Origin: Rhodobacter capsulatus SB 1003
GTDB taxonomy: Bacteria; Pseudomonadota; Alphaproteobacteria; Rhodobacterales; Rhodobacteraceae
Direction: 5' to 3'
DNA: 32,000 nucleotides
NCBI RefSeq assembly: GCF_000021865.1
Contig: NC_014034.1
Location: forward strand, 3,180,001-3,212,000
The notes under the pieces are model-generated. The model was given only the letters and a program-made list of their open reading frames with translations, was not told where the DNA came from and made no database searches. The translations under genes and the position numbers were made by a program. This document shows, one piece after another, positions 12,672 through 22,929 of this stretch. Position 1 is the first letter of the stretch; every line of letters starts with the position of its first letter.

Positions 12672-13664
12672 TCACCGCAGCAGCGCGGCAAATTCCGCCT
12701 GCTCCTCTTCGTCGAGTAAAGCCACCGCCGTGCGGCTGTCGGTCACCAGATCCTGCAGCAGATGCCCCGCCAGCGCCGCATGCAGCGCCACGACCTTGTC
12801 CGTCCCGCCCGCCAGACCGATCACCCGGCGACGCAGGAAATCGGGCGCGGCGGGCGCCAGGGTGCGGGCGGCCAGGGCACTGGGCAATTCGCGGCCCTCT
12901 GCGTCGAAGAATCGGCCCAGAATCTCGCAGGCGGCGCCCAGACCGACGATTTCGGCCAGATCCTCGGTGCCGATCATGCCGAACTGATGCAGCTGGTTTT
13001 CCGGCGCCCCGCGCCCGATGCCCACCACCCAGACCTCGGCCTGCAGCGCCATCTCGGCGACCCGGCGCAGCATCGGCTGACGCAGCAGATCCGCCGCTTC
13101 CTCGGGCGTGCTTGCGTAAAGCGCCGTCGGCAGGGGAAAGGCCTGCGCCCCCAGCCGCTGCGCGATCTGGTGCATCACCGCATGCGGATAGGCGGCATGG
13201 CCGAAGGTCAGCTCGCCCAGAAGCGAGACGAAGCGCAGCTGCCCGATCCGCATCTCGGGCAGCTGCGCGACCATGGCGGCGATGGTGCGCCCATGCGACA
13301 GCCCGATGATGCCCGGCGCCGAGCGCGCCTGCAGCACCCGCACCAGATGCCGCGCGGCGGCGGCGGCGATCATCGGGACCGGGTCGGTCTGATCGGGCGG
13401 CATCAGCGCGATGCAGACGGTGCCCAGCCCGAAGCGGTCGCGCAGACGGCGGGCAAGACGGCGGATCAGCCGCGCCCCCTCGGCGGCATCCGGCACCGGC
13501 ACGGCCACGCTTGGCCGCTGCTCCAGCAGCGCCTGCACCCGGTCGGGCGGCAGACCAAGCCGCCAGCCGATTTCCGTGACCGAGAGGCCGCCGATGTCAT
13601 GCAGCCAGCGCGCCCGCGATTCGGGCGTGTCGGGATGAGGGAGCCTGTGCGGCGGGGCTGTCAT
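12672..13664 (-). CDS. SorC/DeoR-family sugar-binding transcriptional regulator
   Basis: N-terminal HTH (LSVTEIGWRLGLPPDRVQALL) plus a C-terminal sugar-phosphate-binding domain (VVGIGR..., EILGRFFDAEG, IGLAGGTDKV). Its ATG overlaps the upstream stop (ATGA at 13661-13664). Confidence 0.8.
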   Translation of the reverse strand: MTAPPHRLPHPDTPESRARWLHDIGGLSVTEIGWRLGLPPDRVQALLEQRPSVAVPVPDAAEGARLIRRLARRLRDRFGLGTVCIALMPPDQTDPVPMIAAAAARHLVRVLQARSAPGIIGLSHGRTIAAMVAQLPEMRIGQLRFVSLLGELTFGHAAYPHAVMHQIAQRLGAQAFPLPTALYASTPEEAADLLRQPMLRRVAEMALQAEVWVVGIGRGAPENQLHQFGMIGTEDLAEIVGLGAACEILGRFFDAEGRELPSALAARTLAPAAPDFLRRRVIGLAGGTDKVVALHAALAGHLLQDLVTDSRTAVALLDEEEQAEFAALLR

Positions 13665-16243
13665 GCGCCTGATCCTCCGATACCGGCCAGAGCGACGGCG
13701 CGCGGCCGCGGCTCTTCGGCCAGATAGCGCGCCTCGAAACTGCGCAAGCCCAGCGGCCGCCCCAGCAGGAAGCCCTGCATCGCCGGACAGCCCTCCTCCT
13801 TCAGGATGCTGAACTGCGCCTCGGTCTCGACGCCCTCGGCGATCGCGCGCAGGCCAAGCGCCCCCGCCATCGCCAGGATCGCCCGCATCAGCGCCCGGGC
13901 GCGGCCGGGCTCGGGCCCTTCAAGGCCGCGCACGAAGGAGCGGTCGATCTTGATCTCCGCCACCGGCAGGCTTTGCAGCACCCCCAGCGCCGATTGCCCG
14001 GTGCCGAAATCGTCGATCGCGATCTTGTAGCCGACGTCGCGCAGCCGTTCCAGATTGCGCCGCTGCCGCAGCCCCGGCGCGGCCAGCCCGGTCTCGGTCA
14101 GCTCCACCGTCACCTGTTCGGGGTCCAGCCCGACGCGCAACAGCCGCTCGGCCAGATCGGCATGGCCCGGCTCGTCCAGCGTCGTCGCATTGATGTTCAC
14201 CGCCAGCGGCAGCCGGATCCCCCGCGCGGCCCAATCAGCCATCATCGTCCCGGCCAGCCGCATCACCTCGAGGTCGATCGCCGAGACCAGACCGTCCACC
14301 TCGGCCACCGGAATGAACTCCGCGGGCGAGATCGGCCCCAGCTCGGCATCGGTCAGCCGCAAGAGCGCCTCGGCGCCGATCAGCCGGATCCCCTCGCGCA
14401 CGTCGAATTTCGGCTGCAGATGCAGCTCGAAGCTGCTCTCCTCCAGCGCCCGGTGCAAGGCCTGCGCCACCGCCGTGCGGCGTTCGAACTGCGCCCCGAT
14501 CTCGGGCGAGAACAGCGTCACCGTGTTGCGGCCGCGCGCCTTCGACTGGTGCATCGCCATGTCGGCCGCGCGCAAAAGCGCCTCGGCGCAGCCGCCCGGC
14601 CCCGCGTGCAGCGCCACCCCGATCGAGACGGTCAGGAAACATTGCCGCCGCTGCAGCCGCATCGGCCGGGCAAAGGCGCGCACGATGTCCCAGCTGCGCG
14701 ATTCGGCGGCCAGGGCATCCGCCCCGGGCAGCAGGACGACGAATTCGTCCTCGTTCGTGCGCGCCAGCAGCGCCCCCTCGGGCAGGCCCTGTTCCAGCCG
14801 CTTCGCCGCCGATTTGATCAGCTGATCCGCGGTTTCGTGGCCCAAAGTGTCGTTGATCAGCCGGTGATTGTCGAAATCGATGCACAGAACCGCGATCCCG
14901 CCGCCCTCGGCCTCCAGACAGGTCAGCCTTTCGCCCAGACGCCGCATCATCAGATAGCGGTCGGGCAGGCCGGTCATCAGATCATGGGTGGCGATGAAGC
15001 GGGCATTGTCGATCGATTGTTCCAGTTGCTGGCCCAGATCGTGCAGGGTGGTGATGTCCGAGAGCGACAGCAAAAGCCGCCCGTCGCCGGGATCGCCCGG
15101 CAACACCACCAGATCGACCTGCAACAGCCGCAGCCGCCCGGCGCGGCGCAGCCGGATCAGCACCGGGCCGCTGTGCTCCGGATCCTCCATCGCGGCGCAC
15201 AGATCCGCCCGCCCCTCTTCGATCGGCAGCAGGTCGAACATGGCGCGTCCACAGACCGCGCCCGTGCCGCAGCCCATCAGCGCACAGGCCTCGGGATTGG
15301 CCAGCACGATCCGGTCCTGCGCATCCAGCACGATCTTGCCGCTGGGCAGCGCATCCAGGATCGTCGTCAGCCGGTCGCGTTCGCGCGCCAGCGCGCCCTC
15401 CAGCGTCGAGACCGCGGTCATGTCCAGATCGCAGCCCATCAAAAGGCTGATCTCGCCCGCGGGGTCCCAGCGCACGGCGCGGCAAAAGGACAGGAAGGTG
15501 ACCCAATGCCCCAGCCGATGCCGCGAACGCGACAGATGTTGCACCAGCGCGCCGCGGCGCAGGCGGGCGCGCGTCTCGGCGGACTCGAACCCCGCGACAT
15601 CCTCGGGGTGGCTCATCCGCGCCCAGTCGTCGTGGGTGAGCGGCTCCAGATCCTCGGCGCCGTAGCCGAGCCGGTCCTTCCACGAGGCCGAGACGTTCAA
15701 CGCGCCGCTGCGCAGATCGACATTCCACGACGAGGTGGGGGTGATGCCGGCGTTTTCCAGCGTGCTGCGCGCCACCTGCAGCGCGGCATCCAGACGAAAA
15801 AGCCGCCCCGAGGCCGCAGAGGACGCGCCGGGCGCGGCAGGCTCGGCCGGTTCGAGACAGGTCAGGATGAAATCCTCGCCCCCCGGCCCCCAGCGCAGGC
15901 GCAACAGGATCCCCCGCGCCGAAGACATCTCGGGCAGGTCCAGCCCCAGCCGCACCGGATCGGTGTCACAGCGCAGGAAACGGCCCAGATCGGCGCGGTC
16001 GTCGGGGTGGAAAAGCTGCGCGAAGACGGCCAGATCAAGGGTCAGATCCCCAAAGGCAGAGCCCAGAACGATCCGCGGTCCGGCTGCGGTGGTCCGCAGG
16101 CGCCAGGACAGCTCGCCGACACAAGCGGACGCCAGAGCGTCGGTTGCCGGATCGAAACGGGGGTTGCGAACGGCCAATCTTGTCTCCGGGTTCTTCCTTT
16201 CGTGCGAAAGCCTACCATGGTTTCGCGCATGGGGCGAGTGCAA
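13661..16243 (-). CDS. PAS / degenerate GGDEF / EAL protein, likely a c-di-GMP phosphodiesterase
   Basis: EAL signature (GAEALLRL, IAIDDFGTGQS, EIKIDRSF). The GGDEF site reads NEDEF (14741..14755). PAS-like region (ILDALPSGKIVLDAQDRIVLANPEA). The start is uncertain: the track start at 16243 is TTG, and an alternative TTG at 16177 follows a GGAGA RBS. Confidence 0.85.
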   Translation of the reverse strand: MHSPHARNHGRLSHERKNPETRLAVRNPRFDPATDALASACVGELSWRLRTTAAGPRIVLGSAFGDLTLDLAVFAQLFHPDDRADLGRFLRCDTDPVRLGLDLPEMSSARGILLRLRWGPGGEDFILTCLEPAEPAAPGASSAASGRLFRLDAALQVARSTLENAGITPTSSWNVDLRSGALNVSASWKDRLGYGAEDLEPLTHDDWARMSHPEDVAGFESAETRARLRRGALVQHLSRSRHRLGHWVTFLSFCRAVRWDPAGEISLLMGCDLDMTAVSTLEGALARERDRLTTILDALPSGKIVLDAQDRIVLANPEACALMGCGTGAVCGRAMFDLLPIEEGRADLCAAMEDPEHSGPVLIRLRRAGRLRLLQVDLVVLPGDPGDGRLLLSLSDITTLHDLGQQLEQSIDNARFIATHDLMTGLPDRYLMMRRLGERLTCLEAEGGGIAVLCIDFDNHRLINDTLGHETADQLIKSAAKRLEQGLPEGALLARTNEDEFVVLLPGADALAAESRSWDIVRAFARPMRLQRRQCFLTVSIGVALHAGPGGCAEALLRAADMAMHQSKARGRNTVTLFSPEIGAQFERRTAVAQALHRALEESSFELHLQPKFDVREGIRLIGAEALLRLTDAELGPISPAEFIPVAEVDGLVSAIDLEVMRLAGTMMADWAARGIRLPLAVNINATTLDEPGHADLAERLLRVGLDPEQVTVELTETGLAAPGLRQRRNLERLRDVGYKIAIDDFGTGQSALGVLQSLPVAEIKIDRSFVRGLEGPEPGRARALMRAILAMAGALGLRAIAEGVETEAQFSILKEEGCPAMQGFLLGRPLGLRSFEARYLAEEPRPRAVALAGIGGSGA

Positions 16244-16273: not shown

Positions 16274-17224
16274 TCAGACGGCCCCCGGCACCGGGGTGCG
16301 GCGGTCGGCCGCGGTCAGGCAGATCAGCTCGGCGCCAAGGCGCGCCGCCAGCGCCCGGCCCCGGCTTTCGCCCAGCACCATGCAGGCGCTGGCCAGGGCA
16401 TCGGCGCGGATGCAGCTTTCGGCCAGCACCGTGGCCGAGGCCGGACCGCCGATCAGCGGCGCCCCGCGCGCGGGGTCCATCGTATGCGCCAGATGGCGGT
16501 CGCCGACCCGGACCCAATGCCGGTAATCGCCCGAGGTGGCGATGGCGAGATCGGTCAGTTCGAACATCGCATGGATGGCGCGATGGCCGAAATCGGGGCG
16601 TTCAAGCGCCACCGCCCAGCCGCGGTCGTTTCCGTCCCGGTCTTTCGGAGGTTTTCCAATGGCGCGCAGCTCGCCATCAATCGCGGCCAGCGCGCAGGTG
16701 ATCCCCGCCGCGCGGGCCGCCGCGATCAGCCGGTCAACCCCGTAACCCTTGGCGATGCCGCACAGATCGAGGCTCATTTCGGCGTGCTTGCGGGCGCGGC
16801 CCCGCGCGGGGTCCAGCTCCAGCACCTCGAAACTGGGGCGGCGCGGCTTTGCCATCGCGGCGCGGATCGCGGCTTCGTCGGCGGGCACCGGGCCGAAGCC
16901 CCAGGCGCGGACGGCATCGCCCATCGCGATCTCGAAGGCGCCGCCGCTTTCCCGACCGATGACCAGCGCTTCGACCAGCACCTCCATCAGCTCGGGCGGC
17001 AGATCCCGCCATTCCCCCAGCGGCGCCGCGTTGAAGCGCATCAAGTCGCTGTCGGGCTTCCAGGTCGACATCTGCGCGTCGATCCGGTCCACCTCGGCCT
17101 GACAGGCGGCGCGCAGCGGGGCCGGGTCGAAGCCCGGCTCCGGATGCAGCGTCAGCGCCCAGCGCGTGCCCATCGTCGCCCCGTTCAGCACCAGACGGGC
17201 GTTCTTAATAGACATCTTCGGCAT
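16274..17224 (-). CDS. apbE: FAD:protein FMN transferase (flavinylase) ApbE
   Basis: GATMGTRW, LCGIAKGYGVD, ATSGDYR and HTMDPARG motifs are typical of ApbE. The start (17224 or 17215) overlaps the upstream stop. There is no room for an N-terminal signal or lipoprotein peptide before GATMGT. Confidence 0.88.
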   Translation of the reverse strand: MPKMSIKNARLVLNGATMGTRWALTLHPEPGFDPAPLRAACQAEVDRIDAQMSTWKPDSDLMRFNAAPLGEWRDLPPELMEVLVEALVIGRESGGAFEIAMGDAVRAWGFGPVPADEAAIRAAMAKPRRPSFEVLELDPARGRARKHAEMSLDLCGIAKGYGVDRLIAAARAAGITCALAAIDGELRAIGKPPKDRDGNDRGWAVALERPDFGHRAIHAMFELTDLAIATSGDYRHWVRVGDRHLAHTMDPARGAPLIGGPASATVLAESCIRADALASACMVLGESRGRALAARLGAELICLTAADRRTPVPGAV

Positions 17225-19412
17225 AGCGTCCCTCGGCTTTCAAGCTGGCGGGCGTCTGCCCGATGGGAACCAGGATCTCGGCCAGCGCGTCGCGGACCGC
17301 GGCGGCCATGTCGCGCCCGCCGCAGACCATGATCTGCGCCCCCGCCCCGATCAGCCGCGCCAGTTCGGGCGCGTCGGCGCGCAGCGCGTCCTGCACATAG
17401 GTCTTCGGCCCGTGGCGGGAAAAGGCGGTGGTCAGGCGCGACAGCTGTCCCGCGGCCTGCCAGTCGCGCAGTTCGGCCTCGTAAAGCAGGTCGCTTTGAG
17501 GCGCGCGGGCGCCGAAATACAGGTGCATCGGCCGGTGGCGACGGTTGGCGCGCAGGAAGCCCGCCAGCGGCCCGACGCCGGTGCCCGCGCCGATCAGGAT
17601 CACCGGCTTGCGGCCCTTTTGCGGCCGGAACGCGGGGTTGCGGCGGACAAAGCCCGCGACCGTCGCGCCGGGGGTCAGATCGGTCAGCTGCCCCGAACAG
17701 AGCCCGCCCGGATGACGGCGCACGCAGATTTCCAAAAACCCGTCCCGCGCCGAGGAGGCGAGCGAATAAAACCGCGGCAGGTCCGAGCCCTTGGGGAGGA
17801 TGCCGATCAGATCGCCCGCTTCGAAACGCGCAAACCCCTGCCCGGTCAGCCGTTGCCAGAGCGTCGCTTGCGGCACCTCAAAGCGCAGGATCGAGGTCGG
17901 CGCCTGCACCTCGGCGCCATGATCGCGCCGCGAGATCAGGGTCAGCGCGGTGGTCTTCGGCCGTTCGGGCAGATGCGTCAGATCAAGCGGCAGACCAAGG
18001 ACGGCGCCCAGATCGCGGCTCCAGCGGGCGAAATCCTGCGCCGATTGCCGGTCGACGGTGGCCATCGGCATCAGGCTTTCCCAGCCGATCGCGGCAGCCG
18101 CGGCGCGCAGGCTTTCGGCAAAGCCGCAGAACTGCGGAAAGGTGCGATCGCCAAAGCCGAGGATTGCCAAGGGCGCGGCGGGGGCGGATGTCAGCGCGGC
18201 GATGCGGTCCAGGACAGCTTTGGCGGCGGTCGGGGCCTCGCCTTCGCCATAGGTGGCGGCCAGGATCAGGAACCGGCGGGCCCGGGCGTAACGGGCGGGG
18301 TCGAAGGAGGCGAGCGGCGCGGTGTGCACCTTTTGCCCGGCGGCAGTCAGGCCATCGTGAAGCGTGCGGGCAAAGCCCCAGGTCGTGCCGCCCTCGGACG
18401 CGACAAGCACCACGGTTTCGGCCAGTTGGGCCCGGGCATTGCGGCGGATGCGCCGGTTGGACCGCAGACCGGCCCACCAGTGCTGCGCCCCGGTCAAGGC
18501 CAGCGCCGGCACCGACAGGGACATCAGCCCGAGCAGCAGACCCAGCGCCGAGGCCCCCTGCCCCGTGTGCAGCATCACCATGATTTCCGTGGCTTTTTCG
18601 AAAAAGCCGGGGGTGGCCGAGGACAGCATCGCCCCGGTGCCCGGATCGATCAGCGCCGCGCCGCCCTCTGTCACCAGCTTGAACGTGTCGGTCGGATCGT
18701 CGGGCGAGGGCAGCGAAAGTTCCCGCAGCGCCGCGGCGGGGGTGTTCGCCAGCGCCGGGATCTGGTCATAGGGAAGCCGCGGCAGGGTCGCCGTCGCCAG
18801 CGCAGGCGCCGGTTCCGCCGCACCATCGGGCAAAAGCGAGAACATCGAGGCGGTCATCCACAGCGCGGTGAGGGACGACAGGATCAGCCCGCCCACGGCA
18901 AAGCGGGCCAGCTCCACATGCAGCCGCCCGGCAAAGGGGCCACGCGTGCGGCCAAACCAGCGGCTCCAGCCGCCCATCCGCCGCGCCACGAGCCAGGCCC
19001 CCGAAATCGCCAGCGCCAGCATCAGCGCCGCCCCCGCCGCCGCGACCAGCCGCCCGGTGTCCCCGGCGAACAATTCGCGGTGCAGATCGGTCAGGAACCG
19101 CGATCCGGGCAGCGGATCGGGGCTGCCCAGATCGGCGCCGGTCGCGGGGTCGATCACCGCCGCGCCGGGCCTGCCGCCCTCGAACCACCAGGCCACCACG
19201 CGCCCCGAAGGCGCGCGGCGGATCTGTTCGAGACCGGGATGGGCCGAGGCCACCCGTGCCGCCAGATCGGCGACCGTCAGCGTGCTTTCCGCCTGCGGCA
19301 CGGCAAGCCGTTCCAGCGCCGGGTAAAGCGACAGCGCGGATCCGGAAAGCGCCAGCACAAGAACAAGAAGCGCCGCCAGAAGGCCGGGCCAACGGTGCAG
19401 GAATCGCAGCAC
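17205..19412 (-). CDS. PepSY-associated TM domain fused to a CysJ-like flavodoxin/FAD/NAD(P)H reductase
   Basis: GTG start at 19412 after an AAGGAGG RBS. N-terminal PepSY_TM helices (FLHRWPGLLAALLVLVLALSG, DLHRELFAG). Then flavodoxin-like (VVLVASEGGTTWGFA), RFYSLASS (FAD binding), ILIGAGTGVGPLAGF (NAD(P)H binding) and a C-terminal GRYAEDVY. Confidence 0.88.
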   Translation of the reverse strand: MLRFLHRWPGLLAALLVLVLALSGSALSLYPALERLAVPQAESTLTVADLAARVASAHPGLEQIRRAPSGRVVAWWFEGGRPGAAVIDPATGADLGSPDPLPGSRFLTDLHRELFAGDTGRLVAAAGAALMLALAISGAWLVARRMGGWSRWFGRTRGPFAGRLHVELARFAVGGLILSSLTALWMTASMFSLLPDGAAEPAPALATATLPRLPYDQIPALANTPAAALRELSLPSPDDPTDTFKLVTEGGAALIDPGTGAMLSSATPGFFEKATEIMVMLHTGQGASALGLLLGLMSLSVPALALTGAQHWWAGLRSNRRIRRNARAQLAETVVLVASEGGTTWGFARTLHDGLTAAGQKVHTAPLASFDPARYARARRFLILAATYGEGEAPTAAKAVLDRIAALTSAPAAPLAILGFGDRTFPQFCGFAESLRAAAAAIGWESLMPMATVDRQSAQDFARWSRDLGAVLGLPLDLTHLPERPKTTALTLISRRDHGAEVQAPTSILRFEVPQATLWQRLTGQGFARFEAGDLIGILPKGSDLPRFYSLASSARDGFLEICVRRHPGGLCSGQLTDLTPGATVAGFVRRNPAFRPQKGRKPVILIGAGTGVGPLAGFLRANRRHRPMHLYFGARAPQSDLLYEAELRDWQAAGQLSRLTTAFSRHGPKTYVQDALRADAPELARLIGAGAQIMVCGGRDMAAAVRDALAEILVPIGQTPASLKAEGRYAEDVY

Positions 19413-19437
19413 GGGAATGCCTCCTTTTTTCAGGGGT

Positions 19438-19905
19438 TTACTTGGAAACGGTCAGGCTCTGGACGAAGTATTTCCCCGCCACCGGTTTGCCCAGATTGTC
19501 CGAGGTGAGCGGGATCGTGACGTCATCGGGCACGTCCGACATCTTCTCGACCGAACTGTCGACATGCAGGACATAGCCCTGATCGAACAGCGTATCGGCC
19601 AGATCGAGGGTGATCGTCAGCTCACGCCCCGCGCCGACCGAGGCCCCGGTGATGCCATCGACCTGCGCGGTATTGCCGCCGGTCGCCGCATACCAGCCGC
19701 CGAGGTGGCTGTAATATTTCGCCTTGCCGCCCGCCATCCAGAGGCTGCCGACATAGCCGCCCGTCGCATCGGTGACGTAATAGGCCAGATAGGCGCCGTC
19801 GCCGCCGTAAGCGCTCATCTGCGTGGTGAAGGTGACCGGGGTGGCGAGCGCCATCCCCGGAACAAGCGCGGTCGTGACCGCAAGCGCGGTGTGAAGCGGT
19901 TTCAT
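19438..19905 (-). CDS. DUF2271 periplasmic protein with an ApbE-type flavinylation motif
   Basis: Signal peptide MKPLHTALAVTTALVPGMALA. DGITGAS (19639..19659) fits the D-x-x-[ST]-G-A-[ST] FMN-attachment motif. GAGGAG RBS before the ATG at 19905. Confidence 0.85.
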   Translation of the reverse strand: MKPLHTALAVTTALVPGMALATPVTFTTQMSAYGGDGAYLAYYVTDATGGYVGSLWMAGGKAKYYSHLGGWYAATGGNTAQVDGITGASVGAGRELTITLDLADTLFDQGYVLHVDSSVEKMSDVPDDVTIPLTSDNLGKPVAGKYFVQSLTVSK

Positions 19906-19915
19906 CGCGGTCTCC

Positions 19916-20326
19916 TCAGTTCGTTTGCACTTGCGGTTTCGAGCCCGGCGCGAAAAGCCCGTTCGAGGGCGGGGCAACGGTGCCCGCCGCCGCCGGGGCC
20001 GCGCCGCAGCCGGTCGCACCGGGCGGGCAGTTGCGGCGGCCGTGATCGTCGTCGTCGTCATCATCGTCGTGATGGCCGTGGTGGCCGTGATGGCCGAACC
20101 AGCCGAAGAAGCCGTCGTCATCATCGTCATCATCGTGGTCATTGTCGGCCAGCTGCACCGGCTGCGCGGGGCTGCCTTGCGCCGAGGCCGCGACCTTGGA
20201 GGTGGCCAGCGCCGCGGCGGTATTGCCCGCAAAGACCGGCGCGTCGATCGGCGCGGCCGAAAGCGCGCCGACCACGGTCGAGGACAAAAGCACCGCAAGC
20301 GCGATCAGGGGAAGAGAGGATTTCAT
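19916..20326 (-). CDS. Secreted His/Asp-rich protein (putative metal binding), no family recognised
   Basis: Signal peptide MKSSLPLIALAVLLSSTVVGALSA, then DNDHDDDDDDDGFFGWFGHHGHHGHHDDDDDDDDH (20042..20146) and a CPPGATGC pair. AGGAAA RBS. Codon usage is compatible with its neighbours. Called from ORF context only. Confidence 0.6.
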   Translation of the reverse strand: MKSSLPLIALAVLLSSTVVGALSAAPIDAPVFAGNTAAALATSKVAASAQGSPAQPVQLADNDHDDDDDDDGFFGWFGHHGHHGHHDDDDDDDDHGRRNCPPGATGCGAAPAAAGTVAPPSNGLFAPGSKPQVQTN

Positions 20327-20428: not shown

Positions 20429-20454
20429 GAAAAACCGCCGCCCTGTCCGGGCGG
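20429..20454 (-). terminator. Possible intrinsic terminator or attenuator after the small PepSY gene
   Basis: On the minus strand: CCGCCC-GGACA-GGGCGG, then CGGTTTTTCC, 8 nt after the PepSY stop. Confidence 0.4.
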
Positions 20455-20461
20455 ACCCGGA

Positions 20462-20815
20462 TCAGTCGTCGTGATGGGGGGAACGATCCTTGTCGTCGTG
20501 GTCATCGCCGCGACGGCGGTGATGGTCGTCGTCATCGTCGTCGTCGCCGCGGCGCAGGATCTGCAACGAGCCGGGGTCGAGCCGCATCCGCACCCGCAGC
20601 CCGGTCGCATCCCGCGCATCGACTTCGTAACAGCCGTCGTCGATCTTGATGCGCCGCACCGTCAGGCCCTGCTGTTCCACCAGCGCCTGCACCGCCTCGC
20701 GCGGTTGCCAGTCGGCCATCGGCACGATGCAGTCATTGTCATGCGCGGCGGCGGCGGGGGCCTGTGCCAGCACCACCAAAGCGGCGAAAGCGGGCAGGAA
20801 GCGGGAAGCGGTCAT
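20462..20815 (-). CDS. Small periplasmic PepSY-domain protein with an Asp/His-rich C-terminal tail
   Basis: ATG at 20815 (GGAGGA RBS), signal peptide MTASRFLPAFAALVVLAQAPAAAA, PepSY-like core (VQALVEQQGLTVRRIKIDDGCYEVDARDATG) and tail RRGDDDDDDDHHRRRGDDHDDKDRSPHHDD (20465..20545). The track ORF 20462..21523 is a composite with antisense of the response regulator. Confidence 0.75.
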   Translation of the reverse strand: MTASRFLPAFAALVVLAQAPAAAAHDNDCIVPMADWQPREAVQALVEQQGLTVRRIKIDDGCYEVDARDATGLRVRMRLDPGSLQILRRGDDDDDDDHHRRRGDDHDDKDRSPHHDD

Positions 20816-20944: not shown

Positions 20945-21604
20945 ATGCGCATCCTCATCGTGGAAGACGACGCCATTCTGGGGGCCGCGGTGCGCGATCA
21001 GGTGGCCGCCGACGGCCATTCGGTCGATTGGGCGATGCGGCTGGATCAGGCCGCGGATGCGCTGGCGGTGGCGGCCTATGATCTGATCCTGCTCGATCTG
21101 ATGCTGCCCGACGGCCGCGGCATTCCGTTTCTGAAAACCCTGCGCACACAGGGGGTTGCGACGCCGGTGATCATTCTGACCGCGCTTGATCAGGTCTCGG
21201 ACCGGATCGAGGGGCTGAATGCCGGGGCCGATGATTATCTGGTCAAGCCCTTCGATCTGGCGGAGCTGACGGCGCGGATCGGCTCGGTGGCGCGGCGCTA
21301 TGCGGGCAATCCCAATCCGGTCATCCGTCTGGGCGAGCTGACGATCGACCTTGCCGCGCGCGAGCTGCGCCGGGCGGGCAAGGCGGTCGCGCTGACGGCG
21401 CGGGAATGGGCGCTTTTCGAGCTGCTTCTGTCCCGCCCCGGGCAGATCTTTCCGAAACGCGACCTCGAGGACCGGCTTTATTCTTTCGACGACGAGATCG
21501 GCTCGAATACTTTGGAAGTGCATGTCTCAAGGCTGCGCAAGAAACTGGGCGCGCAAGTGATCGAGACCGAACGCGGCCTTGGCTACCGGCTGGCGCGGCC
21601 ATGA
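20945..21604 (+). CDS. OmpR/PhoB-family response regulator
   Basis: MRILIVEDD..., DLILLDLMLPDG (phospho-acceptor Asp) and a winged-helix C-terminus (LTAREWALFELL, LEVHVSRLRKKL). AAGGAG RBS before the ATG at 20945. Confidence 0.92.
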   Translation: MRILIVEDDAILGAAVRDQVAADGHSVDWAMRLDQAADALAVAAYDLILLDLMLPDGRGIPFLKTLRTQGVATPVIILTALDQVSDRIEGLNAGADDYLVKPFDLAELTARIGSVARRYAGNPNPVIRLGELTIDLAARELRRAGKAVALTAREWALFELLLSRPGQIFPKRDLEDRLYSFDDEIGSNTLEVHVSRLRKKLGAQVIETERGLGYRLARP

Positions 21605-22929
21605 GACCGGCGTCGCTGCAAGCGCGGCTGGCCATTGCGGTGGGGCTTCTGGTCACCGTCCTTTGGATCGCGGCGGCCAGTTTTACCGCCTGGCGGCAGC
21701 GGCTGCAGATGGATGCGATGTTCGATGCCTCGTTGCAGGAAACCGCGCATCGGGTCCTGCCGCTGGTCGTTTCCGACATCCTGAGCCGCGGCGATCTGGT
21801 GACGGGCACGCAAAGGGTGCCCGCGGTGCGGCCGCATGACGACAGCTTCAGCTATATCGTGCGCGACGACAAGGGCTCGATCCTGATGATCTCGCATGGG
21901 GCCGATCCGGGGCTGTTTCCGGCCTGGGACGGGATCGGCTTTCGTTCCACCCAGGCCTTGCGGCTTTACAATGACGCGGCGTTGCAGGGCACGGTGCGGA
22001 TCTCGGTGGCCGAGCCGATGGTGCATCGCAAGCGCATGGCTTTCGAGGTGCGGATGGGGCTTCTGGCGCCGATCGCGCTGGTCTTGCCCCTGACGCTTGC
22101 CGGGATTGCCGGGCTGATCCGCTACGGTTTCGCGCCGCTGCGGCAGTTCCGGCTGCGGCTGGCCCGGCGCGGAGCCGCCGATCTGACGCCGGTGGACGCA
22201 AGTGCCCTGCCCGCCGAGGTGCAGCCGCTGGCCGAGACGCTGAACGCGCTGCTGACCCGGCTGGACGACGCCTTTCAGGCCGAGCGCAGCTTTGCCGCCA
22301 ATGCCGCGCATGAGCTGCGCACGCCCTTGGCAGGGGCGATCGCGCAGGCGCAGCGGCTGCGCGCCGAGACGACCGACCCCGCGGTGATCGCCCGGGCAAG
22401 CGACATCGAAACCGTGCTGAAGCGGCTGACCCGGCTCTCGGAGGGGCTGATGAGCCTTGCCCGGGCCGAGGGCGGACGGCTGCGGCGGGATACGGTGCAG
22501 GATCTGCGCCCGGTGGTGCGGATCGTCACCGAGGATGCGATGCGGCTCGCGGGCGGGGCCGGGGTCACGATGGATCTGCCCGAGGGGCCGGTGCTCTCCG
22601 ATCTTGACCCGGATCTGTTCGGGATTCTGGTGCGCAATCTGGTGTCGAACGCGCTGCGCTATGGCACGGAGGTGCGGCTCCGGCTGGAACCGGGGCTTGT
22701 GCGGGTCGAGAACGATTGCGAGCCGCTGCCGCCCGAGGTTCTGGCGCGGATCGGGGCGCGGTTCGAACGCGCGCCCAGCGCCCTGCGCGGCGGCGCGGGG
22801 CTTGGTCTGGCGATCGTGCAGACGATCCTGACCCGTGCCGGGGGGACGCTGCTTCTGAGCTCTCCCCTGCCCGGTCAAAGCCGCGGCTTTGCCGCCGAAG
22901 CCCGGTTCGCCGCCCGTCAGCAGGCCTGA
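21601..22929 (+). CDS. Sensor histidine kinase (two TM segments, HisKA + HATPase)
   Basis: ATGA overlap with the regulator stop. H-box [15 protein letters not shown] boxes ([19 protein letters not shown]). A periplasmic loop lies between hydrophobic segments. Confidence 0.9.

Follow-up and report, generated by a model that had tools for sequence, protein, structure and literature searches.

Where does an ApbE-family flavin transferase without an export signal meet a substrate that is secreted? The question arises from a gene block on the minus strand (16274..20326) of the window, by which we mean the whole stretch analysed here: 32,000 nucleotides of Rhodobacter capsulatus SB 1003 (contig NC_014034.1, positions 3,180,001 to 3,212,000). 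The block encodes an ApbE, a secreted DUF2271 protein and a PepSY_TM membrane protein fused to a flavoprotein reductase. A first-pass annotation of this DNA had singled out these three packed genes as a transmembrane flavin electron conduit and had treated the missing ApbE signal as a local oddity. We find that the missing signal belongs to a whole clade of DUF2271-linked ApbEs. Taking the locus as a whole, we consider it likely that it encodes a fused PepSY-like conduit, with the ApbE attaching flavin mononucleotide (FMN), in our preferred but tentative reading, in the cytoplasm, before its substrate is exported through the general secretory (Sec) pathway. The features of the block are:

16274..17224, minus strand: ApbE-family flavin adenine dinucleotide (FAD):protein FMN transferase, 316 residues (PF02424, E 1.6e-71)
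17205..19412, minus strand: PepSY_TM::flavodoxin::FAD/NAD(P)H reductase fusion, 735 residues (Pfam)
19438..19905, minus strand: DUF2271 protein, 155 residues, with a Sec-type signal peptide at residues 1-21 (PF10029, 1.2e-31)
19639..19659, minus strand: DGITGAS flavinylation motif (read from the codons)
19916..20326, minus strand: Asp/His-rich secreted protein, 136 residues, first gene of the operon (jackhmmer homologues in related loci)

The four genes, in the order Asp/His-rich protein, DUF2271, reductase and ApbE from 5′ to 3′, are tightly spaced and have ribosome-binding sites. Ten nucleotides separate the Asp/His-rich gene from DUF2271 and 25 separate DUF2271 from the reductase, while the reductase and ApbE genes overlap by 20. 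Pfam matches place ApbE, the PepSY_TM reductase and DUF2271 where the first-pass annotation had put them. To sample related loci, we searched 401 Pseudomonadota genomes for DUF2271 and fetched the loci of the 50 positive ones; these genomes are related to one another, and the counts given here are descriptive and not statistics. Two architectures occur among the DUF2271 loci. The separate-gene form consists of a short PepSY-like membrane protein, DUF2271, a DUF4198-like gene, ApbE and, usually, a separate CysJ-like reductase. The fused form is found in the window and in nine other loci, where the same gene order recurs, an arrangement far beyond chance.

Clusters of this kind have been described. 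Meheust, Huang, Rivera-Lugo, Banfield and Light (2021, eLife, PMC8238504) define a PepSY-like system by a PF03929 or PF16357 protein encoded in a flavinylation-associated cluster. That source counts 3220 such clusters, 2833 of them with DUF2271, and 1077 PepSY-like genes with an NAD-binding domain; it also defines the [S/T]GA[S/T] flavinylation motif and already proposes an electron path from NAD(P)H to the periplasm. At the R. capsulatus locus, a PF03929 protein adjoins ApbE and a DUF2271 with DGITGAS and a Sec-type signal. The shared elements are the ApbE, the [S/T]GA[S/T] DUF2271, the PepSY-like membrane protein in the cluster and the same electron path, and in R. capsulatus the locus very probably represents this published system, in the fused form. 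There are differences as well. Genes for DUF4198, VIT1 and a TonB receptor are missing from the R. capsulatus form, its acceptor residue is Ser (TGAS), and a PepSY_2 gene and a two-component system adjoin it. The published work treats the clusters together, and its accessible text does not discuss the missing signal of the linked ApbE.

The substrate side of the question is clear from the DUF2271 gene, the only one of its family in the R. capsulatus genome. GAGGAG precedes its ATG, and the encoded N-terminus, MKPLHTALAVTTALVPGMALA followed by TP, is a Sec-type signal by inspection. The codons GAT GGC ATC ACC GGG GCC TCG at 19659..19639 spell out DGITGAS, so both the signal peptide and the exact motif reported by the first-pass annotation are there; the last Ser of the motif is the predicted FMN acceptor. 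In the 51 loci the DUF2271 N-termini are Sec-like and moderately hydrophobic. We rejected export of DUF2271 by twin-arginine translocation (Tat), since none of the 51 has a twin-arginine consensus and 139 full-length representatives show ordinary MRR.. n-regions only. The acceptor motif itself follows the architecture: it is [DNS]G[IL][TS]GAS in all fused-type loci, versus DGV[ST]G[AP]T in the separate-gene type. Two metagenomic proteins without genomic context show DUF2271 in other combinations. In the 470-residue chain of P0378, a signal peptide comes together with DUF2271 and an ApbE domain that scores weakly (56 bits), and P0257 joins PepSY_TM_like_2 and DUF2271 in one 363-residue chain, the DUF2271 signal peptide serving as an extra transmembrane helix.

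On the enzyme side, the ApbE ATG lies at 17224..17222, with GAGGGA 4 nucleotides 5′ of it, and the GATMGT block follows 14 codons downstream. The 14 residues before the core contain no lipoprotein, Sec or Tat signal, and the best 12-residue Kyte-Doolittle mean upstream of the core is 0.28, compared with 1.5-3.0 in signal-bearing controls. An in-frame TGA at 17242..17240, six codons 5′ of the ATG, makes an upstream start impossible; such a start, which the first-pass annotation had named as the finding that would remove the oddity, was looked for and is excluded. The ATG falls inside the final codons of the reductase gene (..GRYAEDVY*, stop 17207..17205). This overlap geometry is kept in all nine fused-type loci that have a linked ApbE, and since the ApbE N-terminus is the other-frame reading of a conserved reductase C-terminus, the overlap itself is conserved. 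All 25 ApbE homologues that we fetched, from many genera, start M[PS]K[TM][SF]T.., with ..NG[AP]TMGTRW following inside the first 20 residues or so. With the TGA, the conserved N-terminus and the overlap, we rejected a longer ApbE produced from an upstream start or through a frameshift.

The linked ApbE looks active, judging by its alignments, because its whole core aligns with periplasmic ApbEs of known structure and the motifs are kept. It matches Pseudomonas stutzeri 5MGY (3.1e-44, residues 13-299) and Vibrio cholerae 6NXI (5.1e-42, residues 11-295), with the alignment starting at residue 11-13 of these crystallised, signal-truncated proteins. The blocks ATSGDYR, HTMDP (H-x-x-DP) and ADALAS (ADxLAT) are retained in comparison with both, and we take these blocks to hold the FAD, metal and catalytic residues of ApbE. 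The protein scores below the NCBIfam cut-off for the E. coli-type equivalog (154 versus 498 bits) and, on this profile score, is not an enzyme of that type.

How general is the missing signal? We assembled 35 DUF2271-linked ApbEs from the sampled loci and 66 further linked ones, with 20 unlinked paralogues from the same genomes as controls; the search for further loci used a narrower DUF2271 alignment and returned separate-gene proteobacterial loci only. Signals were judged by inspection and by a 12-residue Kyte-Doolittle window moved along the whole open frame 5′ of the ApbE core. All 35 stay below 2.0, the values running from -1.07 to 0.6 in the fused type and from 0.08 to 1.95 in the separate-gene type. 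Nor is there a signal-like window in any of the 66 further ApbEs, from genera that include Cupriavidus, Janthinobacterium, Caulobacter, Stutzerimonas, Azotobacter and Chitinimonas; the top value, 2.15, falls in an Asp-containing stretch. Among the unlinked paralogues, 15 of 20 carry clear lipoprotein, Sec or Tat signals by inspection, with scores of 1.5-3.0. A maximum-likelihood tree unites the 35 linked ApbEs (support 95/86) and splits them into two sister groups, the fused type (100/100) and the separate-gene type (99/91). Three unlinked paralogues without a signal (L067, L069 and L072) cluster together in another clade. The signal-less state is a clade property of the DUF2271-linked enzymes, common to all 101 examined, and not a peculiarity of R. 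capsulatus, so the idea of a local oddity has to be given up. Since the enzymes form one clade that is uniformly signal-less, the state is old and has been maintained. We rejected a tie between this state and the presence of a reductase gene, as nine clusters have an ApbE and no reductase. Linked ApbEs have up to 8 Cys per protein and the exported paralogues at most 3, counts that favour the cytoplasm for the linked enzymes but are weakly informative on the compartment.

Some ApbE genes in this survey are unusual in other ways. The separate-gene-type enzymes open with a conserved M-x-R-V-L-I-P motif. In two separate-gene loci (L030 and L036), no ATG, GTG or TTG occurs in the ApbE frame ahead of the core, and a CTG overlaps the TGA of the preceding DUF4198-like gene (CTGA); the sequence suggests a CTG start or termination-reinitiation. 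Elsewhere on the R. capsulatus chromosome, a 963-residue frame at about 1780200-1783095 (plus strand of C1) encodes a NapH/NosR-like membrane protein (Fer4_5, 3.2e-13) that carries an ApbE domain (1e-33) at its C-terminus. It has no internal stop and no hydrophobic stretch before the ApbE part, which groups in the tree with NosX-like ApbEs that have Tat signals; locus L004 holds the 3′ part of this frame. The fusion is a second signal-less ApbE of the genome, and this ApbE apparently faces the cytoplasm in a protein that normally has its flavin site in the periplasm.

If the linked ApbE stays inside the cell, where does DUF2271 receive its flavin? Our leading reading, held tentatively, has the cytoplasm as the site of FMN attachment, ahead of Sec export. 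The lack of an export signal throughout the linked clade makes attachment to the precursor in the cytoplasm the most likely course. Of the 36 DUF2271 genomes, 23 encode no ApbE besides the linked one, the fused-type genome G144 among them, and there the linked ApbE must be the enzyme that flavinylates DUF2271, if DUF2271 is flavinylated at all. Co-expression in E. coli, as reported in PMC8238504, led to flavinylation of the DUF2271 of A. ursilacus by its cognate ApbE, and a Thr-to-Ala exchange abolished it; such an ApbE can therefore modify its DUF2271 in a cytoplasm. ApbE also accepts peptide tags of 7 residues (PMC12052999), which makes an unfolded DUF2271 precursor a plausible substrate. 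The moderately hydrophobic Sec-type signals of DUF2271 fit post-translational export. Extended to the 101 linked ApbEs from alpha-, beta- and gamma-proteobacteria, the proposal is bolder and we make it with more reserve: an old and widespread clade of ApbEs may be cytoplasmic and put FMN on the DUF2271 precursor before its passage through SecYEG. We know of no earlier case of covalent flavin attachment that precedes Sec export.

Several observations weigh against attachment in the cytoplasm. Salmonella ApbE expressed in the cytosol failed to complement, and in Klebsiella the specificity of ApbE is set by localisation, with the cytoplasmic enzyme serving only the cytoplasmic fumarate reductase (PMC12052999). 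The published experiments come from other organisms (A. ursilacus and Caulobacter), the fused R. capsulatus form being described from its sequence, and our signal calls are made from hydrophobicity and inspection. In one fused-type genome, G259, the cluster is without an ApbE, and a lipoprotein encoded elsewhere is the sole ApbE; from this and the P0378 chain, periplasmic flavinylation of DUF2271 also seems to occur. Finally, R. capsulatus itself has two signal-bearing ApbE paralogues that could in principle serve DUF2271 in the periplasm:

C1:3477531-3478364, chromosome: ApbE paralogue with the export signal MIGRRAAFRTGLALAAGLVLAGG..
C2:54950-55690, second contig (133 kb): ApbE paralogue with the Tat-type signal SRRRFLSISAGIAALAASPLAAA

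These paralogues allow for an alternative in which the linked ApbE is cytoplasmic and has another job, such as loading or tethering FMN on the flavodoxin domain of the reductase or hydrolysing FAD to FMN, while an exported paralogue serves DUF2271. The cluster without an ApbE in G259, with its lipoprotein ApbE encoded elsewhere, and the localisation-controlled specificity in Klebsiella (PMC12052999) point the same way. So does the overlap of apbE with the gene for the cytoplasmic reductase in both architectures, which would be a case of translational coupling. We still consider this explanation unlikely. By eye, the 735-residue protein has no [S/T]GA[S/T] motif, and its FMN loop, SEGGTTWG, is of the ordinary flavodoxin kind that holds FMN non-covalently. 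Nine sampled clusters hold a signal-less ApbE with no reductase gene nearby, and 23 of 36 genomes hold no second ApbE that could take care of DUF2271. Moreover, direct flavinylation of a DUF2271 by the ApbE of its own cluster has been reported (PMC8238504).

Alternatively, the linked ApbE could be periplasmic and arrive there by a non-classical route, either through a cryptic targeting element (M-x-R-V-L-I-P, for example) or by co-export with a partner. This would agree with the characterised extracytosolic targets, all of which are modified outside the cytoplasm (PMC12052999 and PMC8238504). The N-termini of the separate-gene-type ApbEs show a sequence conservation that a mere linker would not usually have; in P0378, ApbE and DUF2271 are exported as a single chain; and the ApbE construct of A. 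ursilacus is termed "signal peptide-truncated" in PMC8238504. The N-terminus of the related Chitinimonas ApbE, MSTAVAARRVLIPVELGALQARP, is not signal-like, however, and the fused-type ApbEs have 14-28 residues before the core, with hydrophobicity of at most 0.6, no twin arginine and no lipobox. Hitch-hiking on Tat is unlikely too, since DUF2271 and the other secreted partners are of the Sec type. We regard a non-classical route as distinctly improbable. That the missing signal is an artefact of a wrong start, a frameshift or a sequencing error, for which we found nothing specific beyond the general possibility in a genome of 70% GC, is hardly credible in view of the in-frame TGA six codons upstream, the good Shine-Dalgarno sequence before the ATG, the same N-terminus in 25 of 25 homologues and the equal overlap in 9 of 9 fused-type loci.

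With flavin attachment to the precursor in the cytoplasm as the preferred reading, what would the flavinylated DUF2271 be connected to? The gene for the 735-residue protein has a GTG start with AAGGAGG 7 nucleotides upstream, and its product has more than 1300 homologues, nearly all of 733-736 residues. Pfam finds PepSY_TM (PF03929, 6.8e-34) at residues 5-313, Flavodoxin_1 (7e-13) and NAD_binding_1 (8.2e-13), with FAD_binding_6 (0.0048) below the cut-off. An AlphaFold2 model, with a mean predicted local distance difference test score of 78.7, has helices at 2-37, 102-145, 160-190 and 285-319 and beta-rich inserts at 61-96 and 229-266, besides a diflavin-reductase body. As modelled, the membrane domain would have the arrangement of FoxB-type proteins, with four transmembrane helices flanking two periplasmic PepSY folds and a His pair on each face. 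Four His residues (H6, H111, H165 and H282) are invariant in 30 homologues of 733-736 residues and in 10 more divergent sequences. When a profile of the first 325 residues was run against the PDB, FoxB (7ABW) was the sole match (E 7.9e-9); a phmmer search of the PDB with the membrane domain alone gave no match, so a profile was required. In this hidden Markov model alignment, three of the four invariant His align directly with His of FoxB, and the fourth is offset by four residues, one helical turn.

The C-terminal part has the layout of a diflavin reductase, a flavodoxin-like FMN domain followed by FAD and NAD(P)H domains. The top Foldseek matches of the model are cytochrome P450 reductase (CPR), nitric oxide synthase reductase and CysJ (E 1e-24). 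The top 50 are diflavin reductases only and are thus uninformative on the membrane part. Structure 6EFV aligned to the reductase part in two stretches (3e-26). In NCBIfam this part is CysJ-like but under the cut-offs (148 versus 668 bits for the CysJ equivalog TIGR01931), and from its sequence we take the protein to work like the CysJ flavoprotein without being a subunit of a sulfite reductase. The Arg-rich loops after transmembrane helices 2 and 4 would place the reductase in the cytoplasm by the positive-inside rule. Pfam, the model and Foldseek thus bear out the first-pass description of PepSY_TM helices fused to a cytoplasmic CysJ-like reductase. Two tetrapeptides, QGAS before transmembrane helix 4 and PGAT in the FAD domain, were rejected as flavinylation sites, as they do not fit [S/T]GA[S/T].

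We are confident that this is an electron conduit from NAD(P)H to the periplasm. Electrons would pass from cytoplasmic NAD(P)H to FAD and then FMN in the CysJ/CPR-like module of the 735-residue protein and would cross the membrane via two haems b on the four invariant His of the FoxB-like domain, with H6 and H165 on the cytoplasmic side and H111 and H282 on the periplasmic side. They would arrive at the FMN held covalently by the Ser of DGITGAS on secreted DUF2271, which ApbE would have flavinylated as a precursor in the cytoplasm, before Sec translocation. DUF2271 would then reduce an acceptor in the periplasm, for which ferric iron or another metal chelate is the likeliest candidate. Expression would probably be governed by the divergent PmrA/QseC-like two-component system together with the PepSY_2 partner. 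In this scheme we infer haem binding, the direction of the electrons, the acceptor, the regulation and the compartment of flavinylation. The conduit proposed by the first-pass annotation fits the published PepSY-like model.

Iron as the acceptor is quite possible, in our view, though we hesitate to call it probable. Since no transporter or TonB receptor gene lies at the locus, the case for iron is one of analogy with the separate-gene form and with PepSY_TM reductases. In the separate-gene form, the Caulobacter crescentus operon CC_3059-CC_3063 (CCNA_03155-03159) is induced 12-44-fold by iron limitation and also in a fur mutant (PMC3751524); insertions in it lower fitness under ethylenediaminetetraacetic acid (EDTA) (10.1101/2024.10.16.618771). 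This operon encodes the same families, a short PepSY-like membrane protein, DUF2271, ApbE and a CysJ-like flavoprotein, and the Caulobacter ApbE belongs to the same signal-less clade, in its separate-gene type (Caulobacter segnis locus L125). It differs from the R. capsulatus locus in that membrane protein and reductase are separate genes, DUF4198 is present and the operon is Fur-regulated. The first-pass annotation had called such clusters experimentally uncharacterised. This holds for electron transfer, for the fused form and for the terminal acceptor; flavinylation (PMC8238504), iron regulation and the EDTA fitness effect have been published.

Analogy with PepSY_TM proteins leads in the same direction, as FoxB, FsrB and CrpH are haem-dependent periplasmic metal reductases (PMC13038864). 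FoxB of Pseudomonas aeruginosa (7ABW), FsrB, FpvG and CrpH share with the R. capsulatus protein the four transmembrane helices, the two periplasmic PepSY folds and the His pairs on both faces (PMC13038864). In the accessible text of the PepSY_TM reductase literature, including PMC13038864, no fused cytoplasmic reductase is described for FoxB-type proteins and the donor is not stated, whereas the R. capsulatus protein would have its donor built in. FoxB-type proteins also reduce the substrate in their own periplasmic cavity, whereas the R. capsulatus system is predicted to interpose flavinylated DUF2271. Against iron, we identified no iron transporter, TonB receptor or Fur-type box at the locus. 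Several metals would be equally compatible with the Asp/His-rich proteins and with the PmrA/QseC-like system, and a copper role, as proposed for CrpH (PMC13038864), is possible by analogy.

Cytoplasmic ApbEs are known from other settings. Klebsiella pneumoniae has one that serves a soluble fumarate reductase, and in trypanosomatids ApbE domains are fused to fumarate reductases (reviewed in PMC12052999). Like the R. capsulatus enzyme, they have no signal peptide, and they act in the cytoplasm. Their targets are cytoplasmic too, whereas the sole recognisable target in R. capsulatus bears a Sec signal.

The functional unit does not end with the DUF2271 gene. Next to the four-gene operon lie the following:

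20438..20454, minus strand: terminator-like hairpin and T-run directly 3′ of the PepSY_2 stop (GC-rich; consensus scan)
20462..20815, minus strand: secreted PepSY_2 protein, 117 residues, with an Asp/His-rich tail (PF13670, 5.2e-23)
20945..21604, plus strand: divergent OmpR-family response regulator (Response_reg and Trans_reg_C)
21601..22929, plus strand: sensor histidine kinase, QseC/PmrB-like (HisKA, HATPase_c and 2CSK_N)

Orthologues of the PepSY_2 protein are found in 9 of the 10 fused-type loci, and orthologues of the response regulator (59-77% identical) and of the kinase in 8 of the 10. Because they accompany the fused-type loci in this way, the unit reaches from 16274 to about 22929; the first-pass annotation had the genes between 16274 and 19905 right and drew the limits of the module too narrowly. 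The regulator is nearest to PmrA/QseB (NCBIfam PmrA, 1.7e-63, at 214 versus a cut-off of 330 bits). The kinase, whose ATG overlaps the regulator stop, matches NCBIfam QseC at 3e-54, below the cut-off. The hairpin hints that the four-gene operon is transcribed on its own, apart from the PepSY_2 gene. No terminator-like site was found in the consensus scan between apbE and the PAS-GGDEF-EAL gene at 13661..16243. We considered this gene as part of the module and left it out, since it is not syntenic in relatives.

A small periplasmic PepSY protein encoded within four genes of a kinase and regulator is a described module, DbfQRS (PMC12714742). The PepSY_2 gene, divergent from the regulator at 20945, has this placement, and the opposite-strand layout matches the Burkholderia arrangement (PMC12714742). 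By analogy, the PepSY_2 protein is a DbfQ-like candidate partner of the adjacent kinase. The likeness to DbfQRS of V. cholerae and BqsPQRS of P. aeruginosa, drawn from their descriptions, lies in a small secreted PepSY protein beside an OmpR-type regulator and a kinase; the R. capsulatus protein differs in its Asp/His tail and its tie to a reductase operon.

The Asp/His-rich protein that heads the operon is real, and it has no Pfam or NCBIfam match, as its first-pass description as a novel His/Asp-rich protein would have it. It is not unique, since its tail recurs in five relatives. The protein has poly-Asp/His tracts, a CPPGATGC pair and a conserved C-terminal tail, APPSNGLFAPGSKPQVQTN. With jackhmmer, homologues were found directly upstream of DUF2271 in six loci including the window, and what they conserve is the C-terminal stretch of about 35 residues, APPxNGLFxxGxxPxVQxN. 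In L044 and L049 this tail is placed behind a PepSY_2 domain and an acidic linker. Poly-Asp(/His) tracts together with the tail were seen in secreted proteins upstream of DUF2271 in the window and in L044, L045, L046, L048, L049 and L051.

The gene cluster itself is routine; it can be annotated as a PepSY-like, DUF2271-based flavin conduit and is probably a metal reductase of the periplasm. The link of the fused form to a PepSY_2/two-component module and to Asp/His-rich proteins offers a handle on its signal and its acceptor. The point of interest is general and not local: the linked transferases have no export signals, and their sole recognisable substrate is secreted. By the working rule of the field, an ApbE and its target share a compartment. 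Attachment before export would call for a revision, across thousands of genomes, both of this rule and of the assumption that FAD is required in the periplasm. These systems would then not need FAD export, and the second signal-less ApbE, in the 963-residue NapH/NosR-like fusion, could act in the same way. With its genetic tractability and its set of both signal-less and exported ApbEs, R. capsulatus is a convenient organism in which to test this.

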